The position numbers and the translations under genes were made by a program. DNA of 64,000 bases, taken from positions 123,680 through 187,679 of the forward strand of contig JBJLGF010000034.1 in assembly GCA_045564975.1 (NCBI GenBank). The letters are read 5' to 3'. Numbering within the stretch: the stretch's first letter is position 1; every line of letters starts with the position of its first letter. Below, piece by piece: positions 54,923 to 63,446 of this stretch. The notes under the pieces were generated by a model. That model searched no databases. It saw only the letters and a list, made by a program, of their open reading frames with translations, and was not told where the DNA came from. The DNA is from Paracoccaceae bacterium. Its GTDB lineage: Bacteria; Pseudomonadota; Alphaproteobacteria; Rhodobacterales; Rhodobacteraceae.

Positions 54923-54987
54923 GTTTCACTCCTCATACCCTTCAAAAAAACCAAAATCGTTAAAAGGGTTTACCGCGCTAATTATTT

Positions 54988-55292
54988 TAAGTGTAGGCTT
55001 CTGTTGCCAGGTGCCTACGAACCCCGCCAAACCAAGCTAGAGGTTTGGACTTAGATTTCAGTATCTCCGACTGCTTACGCAGCCATCGCTACTGGAGCAC
55101 GATTGTCATTTGCAATTGTACATTTTGCGCCGATAACGGTGGCTTCCCGCCGAAACAAAGCTAACCCTTTTAGACGTCCGTCGATCCTATTTCGGCCCCA
55201 AAGGTATATTTTGGTGGAGCCGCAGGGTACCGCCCCCTGGTCCGATCCGCTTATTATGAGCGCGTTTATGTCCATAGTTCAAAAGAACATCT
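54988..55292 (-). ncRNA. ssrA: tmRNA, circularly permuted two-piece form; tag peptide (A)NDNRAPVAMAA
   Basis: Minus strand: acceptor piece ends ...CGGCTCCACCA at 55212; 12-nt spacer; coding piece starts GGGGCCGAAATAGGATCGAC at 55199; tag ORF 55113-55075; terminal hairpin gtagg..cctac near 54990-55020; outer ends approximate. Confidence 0.95.
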
Positions 55293-55450
55293 GATGTTTA
55301 AGCAAAAAACTCCAAAATTTAAAGATTTAAATAAGAAAAGTTAAAAAATTTTTACGGTGCGTCATTTAAACGTTTTTTCTTGTGTGAAAAACAAAACAGT
55401 GTATCTCGAGAGCGGTTTAAGATTGGACTAATTGTTCGGAGTGAAATGTA

Positions 55451-56284
55451 ATGGCTATTTCGCGTAATATTTTTTGGATAGCGTTTTTTGCTTCTATATT
55501 AGCGTCTTGGTGGTGGCTTTACTCCATGAGCCTATCGATGAATATGGATTTGTTAGGACGCATGTCTATGAATACCGCAATGTCCAACATGGATATGTCC
55601 AAAGAGCCTATGTCCAACATGGATATGTCGAAAAGAATGACATCTATGGATCCTATGAAGGGTCACATGGCGATGGATAATTCCATGACCAGTTTTCTAC
55701 CACTTGCTGGAATGTGGGCAATAATGATGGCAGCGATGATGCTCCCAACAATGGTCCCGACTTTGAGAAGTTACGAAGATTTGATGACCAGTGCAAATGG
55801 AACAAGGGTAGGTTGGTTGGGCGTACTTATAGGTTATTCAATTGTCTGGGTGTTATTCTCTTTAATAATCAGCGGCACTCAATTAGCATTACTTTATTTG
55901 AATGTGGTTGATATGATGGGCAAAGCAAAGTCTTTATGGCTATCTGCTGCTCTTTTAATTGTTGCGGGAGCATTCCAATTTACCCGTGCCAAGGAAGTTT
56001 GTCATGGTGTCTGCCATAGTCCAATGTCATATTTTGTCGGTTATTGGCGAGTTGGTTTTAGCGGCGGTTTACGTATGGGGTTGAGCCTCGGCGCTTATTG
56101 CGTCGGGTGTTGTTGGCTGTTTATGGTTCTAGGCTTTGCAGGTGGCGTCATGAATTTTCTTTGGATGGGACTAGCCACGTTTATGATGGTACTAGAAAAA
56201 CTACCACAATTGGGCCACTTTCTTGTAAAACCGCTTGGCATACTGCTGATTCTCAGTGGGCCGAGCATAATTATATTATTTTAA
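55451..56284 (+). CDS. DUF2182 predicted metal-binding integral membrane protein with Met-rich loop
   Basis: MWAIMMAAMMLP, QFTRAKEVCHGVCHSP, YCVGCCW, GVMNFLWM...LEK. Confidence 0.88.
   Translation: MAISRNIFWIAFFASILASWWWLYSMSLSMNMDLLGRMSMNTAMSNMDMSKEPMSNMDMSKRMTSMDPMKGHMAMDNSMTSFLPLAGMWAIMMAAMMLPTMVPTLRSYEDLMTSANGTRVGWLGVLIGYSIVWVLFSLIISGTQLALLYLNVVDMMGKAKSLWLSAALLIVAGAFQFTRAKEVCHGVCHSPMSYFVGYWRVGFSGGLRMGLSLGAYCVGCCWLFMVLGFAGGVMNFLWMGLATFMMVLEKLPQLGHFLVKPLGILLILSGPSIIILF
55580..55633 (+). repeat. In-frame 30-bp-period tandem duplication encoding MSNMDMSK x2
   Basis: atgtccaacatggatatgtc at 55580 and 55610. Confidence 0.9.
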
Positions 56285-56300
56285 ATTAAGGAACGGTTTT

Positions 56301-57005
56301 ATGGCAATAAGCAGAAAACCTGAAGCGGATAAATTACCAGTTAGCCAGCGTATCAATCAACGAATGGAGAACCCAAAGAGACGTCAGGCTACTCCGACAG
56401 AGTGGGCTATAAAGGGAGAGCTATTTCTAAATTGTTCTTGTACGGTTTTTTGCCCTTGTGTTGTTAGTCTAGGCGCTCATCCACCTACCGAAGGCCACTG
56501 TCATGCATGGATGGCAATTGCGATTGATGAGGGCTACTATGAAGAAGAAAATTTGGCTGGAATAGATGTCGGTTTGTTAGTGGATATACCCGGCCGTATG
56601 GGTGAAGGTGATTGGAAGGTCGCGGCATATATAGACAGTGCTGCCAGTGGAAAGGCTTATAATGGTTTGCTTCGTATTTTAAGTGGTCAGGCAGGAGGAA
56701 CCACTGGTTTGTTCACGATGCTTGTGAGCGAGATTATTGGTGCTGAAAAAACAAAAGTTGATATTGTCAGAGAAGGTAAGAAACGTTCGATAATGATTGG
56801 GCGTAAAATACAGGGTGAAATTGAACTCATTGAAGGTAATGAAAAAGACCAACCCGTATTAATAAGTAATACAAAGTATTGGATGGGCCCTGATATAATA
56901 GCAGCCAAAGGTATTAAATCTAAGGTTCGTGATTATGGGCGAGTTTGGGATTTCGGCGGAAAATCTGCGGAAGTTTGCCCCATTGATTGGAAAGGTTCAG
57001 CCTAA
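56301..57005 (+). CDS. DUF1326 family Cys-rich protein
   Basis: WAIKGELFLNCSCTVFCPC...PTEGHC, PGRMGEGDW; usual partner of DUF2182. Confidence 0.88.
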   Translation: MAISRKPEADKLPVSQRINQRMENPKRRQATPTEWAIKGELFLNCSCTVFCPCVVSLGAHPPTEGHCHAWMAIAIDEGYYEEENLAGIDVGLLVDIPGRMGEGDWKVAAYIDSAASGKAYNGLLRILSGQAGGTTGLFTMLVSEIIGAEKTKVDIVREGKKRSIMIGRKIQGEIELIEGNEKDQPVLISNTKYWMGPDIIAAKGIKSKVRDYGRVWDFGGKSAEVCPIDWKGSA

Positions 57006-58106
57006 ATGGCTGGCATAGTTCCTTCAAGAAGAGTTCGCGGTACGCCATTTTCTGCTGGCGTCCAAGCTGCTGGAGCTAAGGCTTACACAGTGTATAACCA
57101 TATGCTGCTACCAAGCTATTTTGAAAGTTATCGAGACGATTATCATCATCTAAAAAAATACGTTCAAGTTTGGGACGTGTCTGTGGAAAGGCAGGTAAGC
57201 GTCAAAGGTCCTGATGCAGCTAAAATGATGACAATGGTTAGTCCTCGTGACATGAACAAAATGGCTGAAGATCAGTGTTACTACATGCCTATCTGTGATG
57301 ATAATGGCGGAATGTTAAATGATCCAGTTGCTATAAAATTAGCTGAAGATCACTACTGGTTATCAATCGCTGATGGTGATTTGCTTCAGTTTCTACTTGG
57401 TTTAGCAATTGGAAAAAATTTACAAGTCGAGATTGAAGAACCTGATGTTTCTCCGTTGGCTATTCAGGGGCCACTAGCAGAAGATCTAACCGCTAGGGTT
57501 TTTGGCGACGTTGTTCGTGAAATTAAATTTTTTCGTTACAAAAAGTTAAAATTCCTTGATACGGATTTTGTTGTGGCGCGTTCAGGTTGGTCTAAGCAGG
57601 GTGGTTTTGAAATTTATGTTGATGGTACAGAATATGGAAAGCCTCTTTGGGACGCCTTTTTTGAAGCTGGAAAAGATTTAAATGTCAGAGCCGGTTGTCC
57701 AAATTTGATTGAACGAATTGAAGGTGGATTATTATCATACGGGTCGGATATGACACGGCAAAACACACCTGTAGAGGCCGGGCTTGCAAGATTTTGTAAT
57801 TCGCCAGATGAGTATCTTGGAAAAGCAACAATTGAAAAACAAAAAAGAGATGGATCAGACCGTATAGTGTGTCCGATTTCTATTGGTGGCGGTGATGACT
57901 TGCCGCACAATGTAACTGGATGGAGGGTTCTTTCCAAAAATAATCAAGTGGGCTTAATTGCTTCAGCTGCATGGTCTCCTGATTTTCAGACTAATGTTGC
58001 AATTGGGATGATTGAGCGAGGCCACTGGGACGCAGGAACGGTTCTCAATGTAGATACTGGCGCTGATATTAGATCAGCGGAAGTAAAAGAAAAATTTTGG
58101 ATTTAA
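57006..58106 (+). CDS. dmdA: Dimethylsulfoniopropionate demethylase
   Basis: PSRRVRGTPFSAGV...YTVYNHMLLP, VQVWDV..ERQ, GGMLNDPV, ARSGWSKQGGFEIY, ERIEGGLLSYG; closely matches Roseobacter DmdA as recalled. Confidence 0.92.
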   Translation: MAGIVPSRRVRGTPFSAGVQAAGAKAYTVYNHMLLPSYFESYRDDYHHLKKYVQVWDVSVERQVSVKGPDAAKMMTMVSPRDMNKMAEDQCYYMPICDDNGGMLNDPVAIKLAEDHYWLSIADGDLLQFLLGLAIGKNLQVEIEEPDVSPLAIQGPLAEDLTARVFGDVVREIKFFRYKKLKFLDTDFVVARSGWSKQGGFEIYVDGTEYGKPLWDAFFEAGKDLNVRAGCPNLIERIEGGLLSYGSDMTRQNTPVEAGLARFCNSPDEYLGKATIEKQKRDGSDRIVCPISIGGGDDLPHNVTGWRVLSKNNQVGLIASAAWSPDFQTNVAIGMIERGHWDAGTVLNVDTGADIRSAEVKEKFWI

Positions 58107-58124
58107 ATCAAAGGAGAAGAAAAA

Positions 58125-59369
58125 ATGGCTACCAAACAGCTTTACGATCTCGGTGATATGCCACCTCTGGGGGAGGTTCCAGAAAAGATGCATGCTTTTT
58201 TAGTTCGACAGGACCGGTTTGGAGAGCCAAGTAAAGCATGGCAAAGAGAAGTCATCGATACGCCAACAATTGGGCCTAAAGACGTATTGGTTTATGTGAT
58301 GGCAACGGGTGTAAACTATAACAACGTTTGGGCGGCGCTTGGATTTCCAGTGGATGTTATTAAGGATCGACAGAAAAAGGGGGAATCAGAGGATTTTCAT
58401 GCTGGTGGCTCCGATGCTTCTGGTATCGTTTGGGCCGTTGGTGAGGAAGTCTCCGATGTGAAAATAGGAGATGAAGTTGTGGTTCATTCTGGCTGGTGGG
58501 AGCCTGATGATGCTTGGGTGCTATCGGGTAGAGACCCAATGCTTGCGCCTAGCGTTCGTATTTGGGGTTATCAAACGAACTATGGTTCCTATTGTCAATT
58601 TGCCAAAGCTCAATCCCATCAAATTAAGAAGAAGCCTAAACATCTTACTTGGGAAGAAGCTGGCTGTTATATGCTTTGTGCATCAACAGCATATCGCCAA
58701 TTAATGGGTTGGGCGCCACATACTGTTGAAAAAGACGATGTTGTTTTGGTCTGGGGTGCTGCCGGTGGCCTTGGTGCTATGGCGTTGCAAATTGTTTCTG
58801 CTTTAGGAGGTAAAGCTATTGCCGTAATTTCAGATGAAGACAAACGGCAGTTCTGCTTGGATAAAGGCGCTGTTGGGGTCATAAACCGTAATGACTTTGA
58901 TCATTGGGGGTCTATGCCGGATACTGCATCTCCAGAGTATGGTAATTTTATTAAAGGGGCACGCGCTTTTGGAAAAGCCATTTGGGATATACTCGGTGAA
59001 CGAAAAAATCCTAAAATTGTATTTGAGCATCCGGGCGAGGCGACATTGCCAACATCAGGTTTCATCTGTGATACAGGTGGTATGGTGGTAATTTGTGCTG
59101 GAACAACGGGATATAATATAACCATGGACCTGCGTTATCACTGGATGATGCAAAAACGTTTTCAAGGGTCACATTTGGCAAATGATGAACAGTCAGAAGC
59201 TGTGAATGAATTGCTTTTGGCAGGAAAAGTTGATCCATGTTTGTCAGGAACTTATAGTTTTGACGAAATAGGTCACGCTCATCAGCTCATGTATGAAAAC
59301 AAACACCCCTATGGAAATATGGCTTGCCTAGTGAATGCTAAAGAAACTGGACAGGGCGCAACAAAATAA
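58125..59369 (+). CDS. Crotonyl-CoA carboxylase/reductase family enzyme (divergent enoyl-CoA carboxylase/reductase)
   Basis: [58 protein letters not shown]. Confidence 0.9.
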
Positions 59370-59383
59370 ATTTAATGCTTTTA

Positions 59384-59411
59384 AATAAAGACCCTTATTA
59401 GGGTCTTTATT
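59384..59411 (+). terminator. Intrinsic terminator after the ccr-like gene
   Basis: Perfect 12-bp stem aataaagaccct-tatt-agggtctttatt. Confidence 0.8.
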
Positions 59412-59549
59412 CTTACAGCAAATTGTTATGTTTTAACAATTGGGTAATTTTATTTTGTTGATAAACTATCGGAGATTGAATTTTAAATTAAATACTACCT
59501 GTAAGATGTTGCTTATAAATAAAAAAAATAGTCATAATAGAGGCCAATT

Positions 59550-60764
59550 ATGGACTTAGATATAAATTTTGTTCGTAATCAGTTTCCGGCATTTTCGGAA
59601 AATAGCTTAATGAATAAAGCTTTTTTTGAAAATGCAGGAGGTTCTTATGCGTGTGGGCAAGTTATTAATCGCCTGAAGCGATTTTATAATGAGAGAAAAG
59701 TACAGCCTTATGGTGCTTTTGAAGCCAGTATTTCTGGTGGAAATGAAATGGATGAGGCTAGGGTAGGCCTTGCGCGCTATTTGGGTGTCAAAGAGAGTGA
59801 AGTGAGCTTTGGACCATCTACAACTCAAAATACATATGTTTTAGCTCAAGCTTTTGGAGAATGGTTGGTTCCAGGTAATGCGATTATTGTTACAAATCAG
59901 GATCATGAAGCAAATACTGGCTCTTGGCGAAGACTTTCTAATCAAGGAGTGCAGATTAAAGAGTGGAAAGTTAACAAAGAAACTGGCGAGCTAAATATAG
60001 AAGATTTGGAAAATTTGCTAAGTGAAGATGTAAAATTAGTGTGCTTTCCACACTGTTCAAATATCGTTGCACATATTAATCCAGTCAAGGAAATAGTATC
60101 ACGGGCACATTCTGCTGGCGCCTTTGTTTGTGTTGATGGAGTGAGTTACGCTCCACATGGCTTACCAAATGTAGATGAAATAGGAGCAGATATCTATCTG
60201 TTCTCAAGTTATAAGACTTATGGACCTCATCAAGGTATAATGGTTATCAGAGAGGTCCTTGCTGAATTGCTCCCTAACCAAGGGCATTATTTTAACGAAA
60301 AATTTTTGACTAAAAAATTTACTCCTGCTGGGCCAGACCATGCACAGATAGCGGCCTGTGCGGGTATTGTTGAATATTTTGATGCCTTAGCAGCTCACCA
60401 TAATATAAGTTTATCTGAGGCACCAATAATGGTGCATAAACTGCTGAGAGATTATGAGAAAAAACTTCTTCAGCCATTATTGGATTATGTAAAATCAAAG
60501 AACTCAACTCGATTGCTGGGTCCCTCTAATGCTTCAAAAAGAGCTCCAACTGTAGCGGTAGATCTGAAGTGCAATGCATTTGAAGTAGCTAAAAAGCTAT
60601 CAGATTTAAATATATTGGCCGGAGGCGATGATTTCTACGCAGTTAGACTTCTGGAAGCATTAGGTGTTGATATAGCTCATGGCGCTCTGCGGTTAAGTTT
60701 TGTACATTATACGAAAGAAGAAGAGGTAAAAGCTGTAATTCAAGCCTTAGATGAAGTTCTATAA
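59550..60764 (+). CDS. Class V PLP aminotransferase / cysteine-desulfurase-like protein
   Basis: FFENAGGS, DHEAN, VDGVSYAPH, FSSYKTYGPH, LRLSFVHY. Confidence 0.87.
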   Translation: MDLDINFVRNQFPAFSENSLMNKAFFENAGGSYACGQVINRLKRFYNERKVQPYGAFEASISGGNEMDEARVGLARYLGVKESEVSFGPSTTQNTYVLAQAFGEWLVPGNAIIVTNQDHEANTGSWRRLSNQGVQIKEWKVNKETGELNIEDLENLLSEDVKLVCFPHCSNIVAHINPVKEIVSRAHSAGAFVCVDGVSYAPHGLPNVDEIGADIYLFSSYKTYGPHQGIMVIREVLAELLPNQGHYFNEKFLTKKFTPAGPDHAQIAACAGIVEYFDALAAHHNISLSEAPIMVHKLLRDYEKKLLQPLLDYVKSKNSTRLLGPSNASKRAPTVAVDLKCNAFEVAKKLSDLNILAGGDDFYAVRLLEALGVDIAHGALRLSFVHYTKEEEVKAVIQALDEVL

Positions 60765-60814
60765 TTTCTTAAAAACTGGCTGAAACAGTTTGTTAGACTA
60801 TATCCACTGATACA

Positions 60815-62230
60815 ATGAAAAAACCTATAATTTACTGGATAAGACGCGACTTTCGGCTTGATAATAATCCTGCTCTAAAGTTCGTTATAGATTCCAAACA
60901 ACCGGTAATACCAGTTTTTATCAGAGATGAGTTTGTCGATAATCTTGGAAGTGCTCCTAAGTGGAGACTTGGTTTGGGTTTAGAATATCTCGCTGCGAAA
61001 TATAAAAAATATGGTGTGGATGTTATTTTCAGGACAGGTTCTGCAGAGAAAGTTTTAACTGATCTAATTAATGAAACTCAGGCAAACCAAGTAGTTTGGG
61101 CGCGCACCTACCTGCCTCCATTGAATGATAGAGATACCCACATTAAGTCCTTGTTAAAACAAAAGGGGCTTTTGGTTAAAAGTTTTCCTGGGCATCTTTT
61201 GTTTGAACCTTGGTCAGTTTCGCCAAAGTCTAGTGACTTTTTTAAGGTTTATACGCCATTTTGGAAAGCAACTCGACTTAAAGACACGCTTGGATTCGAG
61301 ACAAAAGTTTCTGAAATTATAGCAACTGACCAAAAGCTGATGACTGAAAGTTTAGACGGCTGGCGCTTTGGAAAAGGTATGTCACGTGGCTCATCGGTTG
61401 TTCGTCGCTTTGTGCGCTTAGGAGAAGACGCTGCTAGAGAGCGATTAGCTTATTTCATTTCGAGTAACGTGAAGCATTATTCTACTTTTCGAGATATTCC
61501 ATCACTGGATGGGACTTCTGGTTTGTCCGAAAACTTATCTTTAGGTGAAATTTCTCCAATTGAATGTTGGAATGCTGGTCTTAAGGCTTTGGAAGAGGGG
61601 CATGATGCTGCCGAAATATTTTTGAAAGAACTTGTCTGGAGGGAGTTCGCGTATCATTTAGCTCACCATACACCTCGCATTTTAAATAGTAACTGGCGTC
61701 AGGAATGGGATAGCTTTCCGTGGAATACAAATGAGAAAGATGAAAGAGTTACTCGATGGAAGCAGGGCCGTACTGGAATTCCTTTTGTTGATGCTGCAAT
61801 GCGAGAGTTATATGTAACCGGTCGAATGCATAATAGAGGTCGAATGATTGTTGCTTCCTTTTTAACCAAACATTTAATGACTCACTGGAAAATTGGGCTA
61901 AAATGGTTTGAAAATTGTTTGATCGATTGGGATCCAGCGAGTAATGCAATGGGTTGGCAATGGTCTGCGGGATCTGGACCCGACGCAACTCCATATTTCA
62001 GAGTTTTTAATCCGAATACACAATTAGAGAAGTTTGATAGCCAGTACGAATATAGAGATAGGTGGCTTGCTGAATTTAGTGGCAAAAATTCAAAAAATGC
62101 ACTTTCTTTCTTTGACGCGATCCCAAAAAACTGGAAATTATCAGTGCAAATGGAGTATCCTAAACCTATAGTTGATTTGTCTGAAGGAAGAAAAATAGCG
62201 CTAGACGCTTATAAGAATAGGAAGTTTTAA
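60815..62230 (+). CDS. phrB: CPD DNA photolyase
   Basis: WIRRDFRLDNNPAL, FKVYTPF, ELVWREF, GRMHNRGRMIVASFL, WQWSAG, YFRVFNP. Confidence 0.94.
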   Translation: MKKPIIYWIRRDFRLDNNPALKFVIDSKQPVIPVFIRDEFVDNLGSAPKWRLGLGLEYLAAKYKKYGVDVIFRTGSAEKVLTDLINETQANQVVWARTYLPPLNDRDTHIKSLLKQKGLLVKSFPGHLLFEPWSVSPKSSDFFKVYTPFWKATRLKDTLGFETKVSEIIATDQKLMTESLDGWRFGKGMSRGSSVVRRFVRLGEDAARERLAYFISSNVKHYSTFRDIPSLDGTSGLSENLSLGEISPIECWNAGLKALEEGHDAAEIFLKELVWREFAYHLAHHTPRILNSNWRQEWDSFPWNTNEKDERVTRWKQGRTGIPFVDAAMRELYVTGRMHNRGRMIVASFLTKHLMTHWKIGLKWFENCLIDWDPASNAMGWQWSAGSGPDATPYFRVFNPNTQLEKFDSQYEYRDRWLAEFSGKNSKNALSFFDAIPKNWKLSVQMEYPKPIVDLSEGRKIALDAYKNRKF

Positions 62231-62240
62231 GAGTTAGGTC

Positions 62241-63446
62241 ATGTTAGAAACAACAGTAGGACAGAAAAACTTGCCACGGTATTTTTCGCAAGTTTTTGAA
62301 ATGACAAAAAAAATGAATACTGGCAGGTTAGATTTTGAATTACCTGACGGTCGAGTTTTTCGTGCACATGGGAAAAAACCTGGGCCTGTAAGTAAGCTTA
62401 AAATCAACAATGAAGATGTTTTTGCAAGGCTTATCCGGGAAGGGGATCTTGGTTTTTGTGATGCTTATCTTGATGGTTGGTGGTCTACGCCTGATTTACA
62501 AGCGTTCTTAGACCTTGTGCACGCTGATAATGATGAGATGTATGATTCTTTTCCAGGTATGGGTATGGTAAGGGCCTGGGAAAAATTTCGATTTTGGCTA
62601 CAATCTAATTCCAAGTCTCAAGCAAGAAAGAATATAAGCTATCATTACGATCTAGGAAATGATTTTTACAAATTGTGGCTCGATGAAACTATGACATATT
62701 CATCTGCAATTTTCAAAACTGGGCAGGAAAGCACAGAAAGCGCTCAGATTGAAAAGTACTCTTCATTAATAAATCAAATGGGTGCAAAGAAAGGTGATCA
62801 TATTCTTGAAATAGGGTGTGGTTGGGGAGGCTTTGCTGAATATGCGGCAAAAGAACGGGGACTTAAAGTTACAGGGTTAACAATTAGCAAAGAGCAATTA
62901 AAATATGCTGAAAAGCGCATCAAAGATGCGGGTCTTTCAGATATGGTTAATTTCAAGCTTCAGGACTATAGGGATGAACGTGGGAAATATGACGGCATAG
63001 CGAGCATAGAAATGTTTGAAGCCGTAGGAGAAAAATATTGGCCAGCCTATTTTGATTGCGTTAAAAACTGCCTTTATCCTGGAAAACAGGCTACACTTCA
63101 GATTATTACCATCCAAGAGGCTAGGTGGGAAATATATCGACGTGGAGTGGATTTCATTCAAAAATATATTTTTCCAGGTGGGATGTTGCCTAGCCCAGCT
63201 GCGCTTAGGTCAGAAGTTGAACGTGCTGGCTTGAAAGTTGTAAATTCAATAGAGTTTGGAGAAAGTTATTCCAAAACCTTACGACGCTGGCATGAGACAT
63301 TTAATGCTAAATGGGATCAAATTTCTGAAATGGGTTTTGATGACAGGTTTCAAAGAATGTGGAACTTTTACTTAACCTCATGCGCGTCCACTTTTCATTA
63401 TGGCAATTGTGATGTCACACAAATTACAATTGAGAAACCGACCTAG
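62241..63446 (+). CDS. Cfa-family SAM-dependent fatty-acyl methyltransferase (cfaS/UfaM-like)
   Basis: NISYHYDLGN, MTYSSA, LEIGCGWG, SIEMFEAVG, FIQKYIFPGG. Confidence 0.9.
   Translation: MLETTVGQKNLPRYFSQVFEMTKKMNTGRLDFELPDGRVFRAHGKKPGPVSKLKINNEDVFARLIREGDLGFCDAYLDGWWSTPDLQAFLDLVHADNDEMYDSFPGMGMVRAWEKFRFWLQSNSKSQARKNISYHYDLGNDFYKLWLDETMTYSSAIFKTGQESTESAQIEKYSSLINQMGAKKGDHILEIGCGWGGFAEYAAKERGLKVTGLTISKEQLKYAEKRIKDAGLSDMVNFKLQDYRDERGKYDGIASIEMFEAVGEKYWPAYFDCVKNCLYPGKQATLQIITIQEARWEIYRRGVDFIQKYIFPGGMLPSPAALRSEVERAGLKVVNSIEFGESYSKTLRRWHETFNAKWDQISEMGFDDRFQRMWNFYLTSCASTFHYGNCDVTQITIEKPT

Follow-up and report, generated by a model that had tools for sequence, protein, structure and literature searches.

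The window analyzed here, a stretch of 64,000 nucleotides from a Paracoccaceae genome assembly (GCA_045564975.1, contig JBJLGF010000034.1), carries an operon for dimethylsulfoniopropionate (DMSP) in which dmdE, dmdF, and dmdA are followed by a gene of the enoyl coenzyme A (enoyl-CoA) carboxylase/reductase (ECR) family, in the slot held in related genomes by the acryloyl-CoA reductase gene acuI (Table 1). The host is a marine bacterium with a small genome (2.19 Mb, 85% complete, 39.7% G+C), and its nearest named relatives are uncultured Rhodobacteraceae. Coordinates of the open reading frames (ORFs) and the computed fold confirm the layout given in an initial annotation of this DNA, with four co-oriented ORFs, intergenic gaps of 16, 0, and 18 bp, and a perfect closing hairpin. 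The hairpin is likely an intrinsic terminator; since a consensus terminator scan omitted it from its output, we infer that role from sequence and fold.

The DUF2182 and DUF1326 genes that the initial annotation placed in the operon are present, and both have already been described by Fu et al. (2026, PMC12992908), who named them dmdE and dmdF. In Ruegeria lacuscaerulensis, dmdE is required for growth on DMSP, and dmdF is reported as a peroxidase. Both genes share with dmdA-acuI the regulator DmdR, which acryloyl-CoA releases (PMC12992908). In the same work, dmdEF of Rhodobacterales always lie near dmdR with acuI, and dmdR clusters with acuI whether dmdA is present or not (PMC12992908). Todd et al. 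(2012, PMC3338564) found acuI in every Roseobacter genome listed at that time. The dmdE-dmdF-dmdA part of the operon is therefore known, and the undescribed part is the fourth gene.

Table 1. Features of the operon, with positions in the window
Feature	Position	Strand	Evidence
dmdE (DUF2182 / PF09948), membrane protein	55451..56284	+	PF09948, 197 bits
dmdF (DUF1326 / PF07040)	56301..57005	+	PF07040, 157 bits
dmdA, DMSP demethylase	57006..58106	+	NF009133, 559.8 bits (cut-off 410)
ECR-family paralogue in acuI slot	58125..59369	+	TIGR01751, 548 bits (cut-off 378.55)
Perfect 12-bp hairpin, 4-nt loop, A-rich 5' and T-rich 3' arms; likely terminator	59384..59411	+	Fold, -16.0 kcal/mol

The fourth-gene protein passes the crotonyl-CoA carboxylase/reductase (Ccr) profile TIGR01751 and fails the AcuI/YhdH profiles TIGR02823 (59 versus 297 bits) and NF051456 (33 versus 440 bits), which upholds its earlier assignment as Ccr-type and not AcuI-type. 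It is 52 to 54% identical to AntE, 9KVA, and the M. extorquens-type Ccr 4GI2. An AlphaFold2 model (predicted local distance difference test, 88.7; residues 327 to 348 of low confidence) reaches template modeling (TM) scores of 0.91 to 0.93 to 4Y0K, 9KVA, and 4GI2, so that the ECR fold is confirmed at the level of the model. Comparison with four close relatives shows purifying selection on the gene, with 106 to 136 synonymous versus 7 to 19 nonsynonymous codon differences. Its G+C content (44.7%; 0.35 at the third position, versus 0.26 to 0.32 in the neighbors and 0.44 in dmdE) is barely above that of its neighbors and thus too weak a signal to date a transfer.

Parts of the stretch are present in 17 seawater RNA runs. 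RNA contigs from four runs span all three gene junctions, the dmdA-ECR junction by one contig (run X1), which shows presence and not a single transcript. Contig cover is near zero in the bin past the hairpin in four runs, the uncovered part itself carrying no weight.

Replacement of acuI by an ECR gene

We observe a real and repeated non-orthologous swap, in which a gene of an undescribed ECR branch takes the place of acuI in the known operon. Members of the genus that bear acuI carry the order dmdE-dmdF-dmdA-acuI-csd-photolyase-cfa, and the window is identical except for the fourth gene. DNA homology between the window and the sister species G008 extends up to position 58115 (77%) and sets in again at 59547 (75%). 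The interruption corresponds exactly to the ECR gene plus the hairpin, and G008 carries acuI at that place, as expected from the earlier claim that a Ccr-like gene replaces acuI. The dmdF gene of the window is 96% identical to that of G008, and dmdE is 40 to 60% identical to dmdE of acuI-type operons in other genera.

Nine of the 22 genomes of the genus have the ECR only (two of them partial at contig ends), nine have acuI only, none has both, and the four with neither are 53 to 75% complete. A search for acuI elsewhere in the host genome, suggested by the initial annotation, returned nothing over the cut-off in the 85% complete assembly (best match, 93 versus 297 bits). A further set of genomes carrying members of the same ECR clade comprised 50 genomes from 61 candidates, and in the larger of these genomes the search for acuI scored only 34 candidates; no acuI match was found in 46 of these 50, whose completeness is not given, and the comparison set showed an acuI match in 27 of 39 other relatives.

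The order dmdF-dmdA-ECR was found again in 12 of 80 related loci (L039 to L050, with dmdE cut by the contig end in L043), so the arrangement is neither chance nor an artifact unique to this assembly, and the ECR follows dmdA in 13 genomes, the host genome counted. At five more loci the ECR stands straight after dmdF and dmdA is absent, which resembles the form of the known operon with acuI only. In a quick tree built from the csd and photolyase proteins that flank the operon (22 rows), the acuI-bearing pair G008 and G010 shares an open fork with species that bear the ECR, and the two states are interleaved across the family; the tree does not orient the swap.

Other features of the locus lie outside the swap itself. 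A csd-like aminotransferase, a photolyase, and a cyclopropane synthase (window 59550-63446) follow downstream throughout the family, at ECR-type and acuI-type loci alike, a conserved neighborhood with no sign of pathway membership. Just upstream of dmdE and divergent from it, a permuted two-piece transfer-messenger RNA (tmRNA) gene with the tag ANDNRAPVAMAA (window 54984-55304, minus strand) occupies the position where other genomes carry dmdR. The N terminus of DmdE is Met-rich, with a 20-bp unit present twice at 30-bp spacing (window 55580-55630). This stretch suggests a copper link for DmdE and DmdF, as does the Pfam description of the PF09948 family, whose current name is PpoB2, as a copper chaperone.

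A separate ECR clade and its link to DmdR

A FastTree analysis of 48 selected ECRs, from which the closest duplicates from the 80 loci (19) and others had been left out, places the window ECR in a 34-row clade that has a local support of 100 and a long stem. Its sister group consists of Ccrs that keep Glu in the CO2 pocket, for example beside ecm-meaB in Accumulibacter. Clade members are mostly found in Alphaproteobacteria (Rhodobacteraceae, Rhodospirillales, and Hyphomicrobiales), but also in Woeseia, Arenicellales, and SAR324, plus single members of two other phyla; the clade gene is present in 5 of 300 other Rhodobacteraceae genomes sampled at approximately one per genus. No clade member of more than 60% identity was found on plasmids.

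Passing the TIGR01751 cut-off, and having a sister clade that sits with ecm, the gene might be thought a spare Ccr acting on crotonyl-CoA within the ethylmalonyl-CoA pathway and standing beside dmdA by chance. This explanation is very improbable and largely refuted by the genomes themselves. The host encodes a second ECR on contig C68 (54% identical), divergent from ecm and with the full Asn/Tyr-Glu/His motif; given this separate canonical ecm-ccr pair, the window ECR is not the host's ethylmalonyl-CoA Ccr, and hence not its sole one. We found ecm nearby at none of 67 clade loci. Canonical Ccr is present in 24 of 51 clade genomes and absent from 27, and 26 of these 27 also have no Ecm-type match. 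Chance would explain neither the exclusion of acuI nor the link to the regulator DmdR.

This link is seen in several arrangements. A DmdR-like gene is present in 19 of the 50 further clade genomes. In six, it is divergent from dmdE-dmdF-dmdA-ECR with dmd boxes between, and the encoded proteins are 70 to 74% identical to DmdR of the G036 acuI operon (61 to 74% over three such operons). In eight others the DmdR-like gene (44 to 52% identical) directly faces the ECR, and in four it heads dmdE while the ECR lies elsewhere with a TGTCWGACA box 58 to 59 bp upstream. In the last genome the contig end truncates the ECR, and the DmdR-like gene is found 3.3 kb downstream of that ECR, so that 18 of the 19 genomes tie a DmdR-like repressor to the ECR, at the operon head, face to face, or through an upstream dmd-type box. 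Of 64 clade genes, 15 have a relaxed dmd-type motif in the 250 bp upstream, versus 8 of 757 other ORFs at the same loci, a contrast that is not blind, the pattern having been widened after the sequences were seen. In L156, where acuI adjoins a DmdR-like gene, the same box variant stands upstream of acuI.

Several individual loci are of separate interest. At L201, L202, and L203 (genomes G073, G084, and G075), dmdR faces a dmdE-dmdF-csd cluster that lacks both dmdA and acuI, and the ECR lies elsewhere with its own dmd box. Clustering of a prpE-like ligase gene, a DmdR-like gene, and the ECR in genomes of Acidobacteriota and Hydrogenedentota (L073 and L081) suggests that an acrylate module has moved between phyla. 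In a Hyphomicrobiaceae genome (L071, 7095-13031), a DmdR-like gene faces the ECR, a DUF1326 gene, an acyl-CoA ligase gene, and one of selenium-binding/MtoX-like type (162 bits, under the cut-off), possibly an organosulfur operon.

Predicted substrate and reaction

The swap in the acuI slot, the near-exclusion of acuI, and the link to DmdR and its boxes together make acryloyl-CoA the highly probable substrate of the window ECR, judged from sequence and gene context. Activity on a different enoyl-CoA from the demethylation branch, for example methylthioacryloyl-CoA (MTA-CoA), which the initial annotation had also considered, or broadly on short enoyl-CoAs, is improbable. The position after dmdA in 13 genomes would suit it, as would the order of ECR, DUF1326 gene, acyl-CoA ligase, and MtoX-like gene at L071. 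The closest solved relative is AntE, which presumably takes bulky substrates and serves polyketide synthesis, and at two positions that we take to line the substrate pocket the window ECR departs from canonical Ccr, with Ser122 for Cys and Leu351 for Phe. However, the window ECR keeps Leu184 as in canonical Ccr, where AntE has Ala. MTA-CoA becomes an unlikely substrate because the clade gene often stands without dmdA, in 55 of 67 loci, including the eight that face a DmdR-like gene; its reduction would reverse the DmdC step of the established pathway, and the loss of acuI would be left unexplained. DmdR, moreover, senses acryloyl-CoA and is always found with acuI (PMC12992908).

Both supply and exit of the proposed route are partly encoded in the host genome, with DddP (887 bits versus a cut-off of 600), AcsA, and a DmdB-like ligase below the cut-off on the one side, and methylmalonyl-CoA epimerase and PccB on the other; pccA is cut by the end of contig C27, and relatives carry mcm a few kilobases downstream of pccB. 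PrpE-like genes are found in 52 of 60 clade genomes and a full-scoring Mcm in 54 of 60. Neither Mcm, which is near-universal and required on both routes, nor PccB, whose loss would have favored carboxylation and which is kept in 54 of 60, discriminates between carboxylation and reduction. The host genome also encodes a second DmdA-like protein (39% identical, below the cut-off; G000:C40:3074-4153) and a cupin of the DMSP lyase family PF16867 adjoining a VOC-like gene (G000:C12:39593-40012).

Our preferred reading, to which we assign a probability of about 0.5, is that the ECR branch in the place of acuI removes toxic acryloyl-CoA with NADPH and, as predicted from its sequence, adds CO2. DddP and a CoA ligase would convert DMSP to acryloyl-CoA, and the ECR would turn this with NADPH and CO2 into (2S)-methylmalonyl-CoA in one step. 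Epimerase and then mutase would carry the product to succinyl-CoA, saving the ATP of propionyl-CoA carboxylase; at low CO2, part of the flux would be diverted to propionyl-CoA. If acryloyl-CoA is the substrate, carboxylation is somewhat favored as the main outcome, and overall it stands at about even odds. That this widespread marine branch is a natural, dedicated acryloyl-CoA carboxylase, recruited into the DmdR regulon instead of AcuI and using CO2 but no ATP, is a tentative proposal.

A paralogue dedicated to acryloyl-CoA would have a rationale. Asao and Alber reportedly found in 2013 that Ccr complements an acuI mutant of R. sphaeroides in the laboratory. In C. sphaeroides, acuI mutants fail on 3-hydroxypropionate in the light despite the ethylmalonyl-CoA pathway (PMC12632250), so canonical Ccr at native levels is no substitute for AcuI, which accounts for a paralogue given over to this step. 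With acryloyl-CoA as the substrate, the Ccr of M. extorquens carboxylates at 40% of the activity that it has on crotonyl-CoA, and its Michaelis constant (Km) is 0.78 mM (PMC10266731), compared with a Km of AcuI for acryloyl-CoA below 3 µM (PMC4029986). AcuI together with propionyl-CoA carboxylase already adds one inorganic carbon per acrylate, toward succinyl-CoA (PMC12632250, PMC10266731), so that a carboxylating ECR would save one ATP and add no carbon. The new coupling of DMSP use to anaplerotic carbon fixation put forward in the initial annotation was in this respect overstated, the novelty being the one ATP that is skipped.

Instead of carboxylating, the ECR could have largely given up CO2 and reduce acryloyl-CoA to propionyl-CoA, as a like-for-like replacement of AcuI with carboxylation left to propionyl-CoA carboxylase; we consider this possible but rather doubtful. 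The CO2 pocket bears most directly on the question. In K. setae Ccr it is formed by Asn81, Phe170, Glu171, and His365 (Stoffel et al. 2019, PMC6628652), which correspond to N66, Y149, Q150, and H350 of the window ECR, so that three of the four residues are kept and the canonical pocket is not fully matched. Asn is found at the first site in 66 of 67 clade loci (one not covered), the water-shielding second site is Tyr in 67 of 67, and the fourth is His in 65 of 67 (two not covered), each residue being present in 120 of 120 clade proteins. Asn81 and the aromatic residue at position 170, which decide between carboxylation and reduction in K. setae Ccr, are unchanged throughout the clade, and it is their loss that shifts the K. 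setae enzyme to reduction, with carboxylated product falling to 19% in N81L and 17% in F170A versus 100% in F170Y, 93% in H365N, and 97% in E171A (PMC6628652). The K. setae enzyme thus still carboxylates without Glu171, and 2 of the 120 clade proteins have Glu at this site (P0024 and P0111, 80 to 84% identical). The use of a 414-residue enzyme for a 325-residue one in small genomes would also be easier to explain by a saving of ATP.

The conserved Thr of canonical Ccr is kept as well, and the residue after the pocket Asn is Asn. Asp at that position is said, following Bernhardsgruetter in 2019, to suppress carboxylation in propionyl-CoA synthase (Pcs). A distant ECR (P0260, 36%) carries Asp in this position together with Gln in the place of Glu171, which may be an independent drift to plain reduction.

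Several observations weigh against the reading with CO2 addition or loosen its supports. The genomes behind the presence and absence counts are kin, so the counts are not independent, and acuI matches occur in 4 of the 50 further clade genomes, three of them over the cut-off. Many of the stand-alone clade genes have unrelated neighbors (50 neighbors scanned). No DmdR match was found in 31 of the 50 genomes, nor in the host genome and 17 other members of its genus, and no dmd box was seen in the window upstream of dmdE; the operon in the host is therefore likely outside DmdR control, and it is other lineages that supply the regulatory evidence. Neither PrpE nor Mcm was found in the host genome (85% complete). 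The retention of PccB gives plain reduction to propionyl-CoA an outlet.

The pocket adds to these points, since the Glu171 site is occupied by Gln at each of the 67 clade loci and in 118 of the 120 clade proteins. Among 100 distant representatives (<68% identity, site covered) there are 77 with Glu, 11 with Asp, and 3 with Gln, and given this rarity outside the clade, Gln is a mark of the clade. Pcs presumably keeps the CO2 motif. It has an ECR-type domain, yet reduces acryloyl-CoA (PMC10266731), which makes it a precedent for a plain reductase. The E171A variant of K. setae Ccr is slowed approximately 17-fold, its Km for crotonyl-CoA is 25-fold higher, and its CO2 control is loosened (PMC6628652). 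Glu171 also has a part in the water network and in a side activity of carbonic-anhydrase-like type (PMC10966969). The clade-wide change to Gln touches this network, which holds CO2, and context evidence from the swap, the exclusion of acuI, DmdR, and the boxes fits a plain reductase equally well. Detoxification should not hinge on CO2, and typical surface seawater CO2 lies below 90 µM. This value is the CO2 Km of K. setae Ccr (PMC6628652). Since Glu171 also positions the CoA ester, Gln at this site may instead be an adaptation to acryloyl-CoA. What stands of the initial proposal is the handling of acryloyl-CoA, likely from context; carboxylation is a candidate outcome only, given the retained propionyl-CoA carboxylase and Gln at the Glu171 site, a change absent from the initial annotation.

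On either outcome, the clade would likely represent a new class of enzyme that removes acryloyl-CoA in uncultured marine bacteria and that databases label plainly as crotonyl-CoA carboxylase/reductase. Surveys based on acuI would overlook these cells, and those based on ccr would mistakenly credit the 27 of 51 clade genomes without canonical Ccr with the ethylmalonyl-CoA pathway. If the enzyme carboxylates, acrylate from DMSP would enter metabolism one ATP cheaper, and enzyme designers would gain a natural acryloyl-CoA carboxylase to set beside canonical Ccr with its Km of 0.78 mM (PMC10266731). If it only reduces, it would be a natural reversion from carboxylase to reductase with Glu171Gln as the candidate switch.

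Comparison with known systems

No description of an ECR in the place of acuI beside dmdA, or of acryloyl-CoA carboxylation in connection with DMSP, was found in full-text searches of open papers, which did not take in most subscription papers and theses. The terms "ccr" and "crotonyl" occur nowhere in the text and supplementary files of PMC12992908 that were searched, its appendix figures lying outside the search, and Curson 2014 makes no mention of Ccr. With the known dmdR-dmdEF-dmdA-acuI operon (PMC12992908, PMC3338564), the window shares the order and orientation of dmdE, dmdF, and dmdA, and six other ECR genomes also share dmdR and the dmd boxes. Unlike that operon, the window has the ECR for acuI and no dinB, and no dmdR match was found in the genome or genus. 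The ECR-bearing uncultured lineages thus break the rule that dmdEF lie near dmdR with acuI (PMC12992908).

Canonical Ccr (4GI2, K. setae 6OWE, and the Accumulibacter ecm-meaB-ccr type) has the same family and fold, Asn81, Tyr/Phe170, His365, and Thr, whereas the window ECR belongs to a separate clade, is 53 to 62% identical, never stands beside ecm, is often a second copy, and carries Gln for Glu171, Ser for Cys, and Leu for Phe. AcuI/YhdH (MDR012) shares the operon slot, the type of regulator, and a near mutual exclusion with the ECR, but is only a distant relative among the medium-chain dehydrogenases/reductases and gives propionyl-CoA only. The best match in the PDB is AntE (4Y0K; 516 bits, TM score of 0.91), an ECR for antimycin extender units that shares the Asn-Asn motif after the pocket Asn but keeps Glu at the 171 site and has Ala in the place of Leu184. 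The reductase domain of Pcs (6EQO) uses an ECR-type fold on acryloyl-CoA, as proposed for the window ECR; Pcs is a three-domain fusion that naturally reduces and carboxylates after engineering, whereas the window ECR stands alone. Finally, the HOPAC cycle borrows a crotonyl-CoA enzyme for its acryloyl-CoA carboxylation step, and if the window ECR does carboxylate, it would be the natural form of a step that this cycle had to borrow or engineer, tuned to micromolar acryloyl-CoA and seawater CO2.

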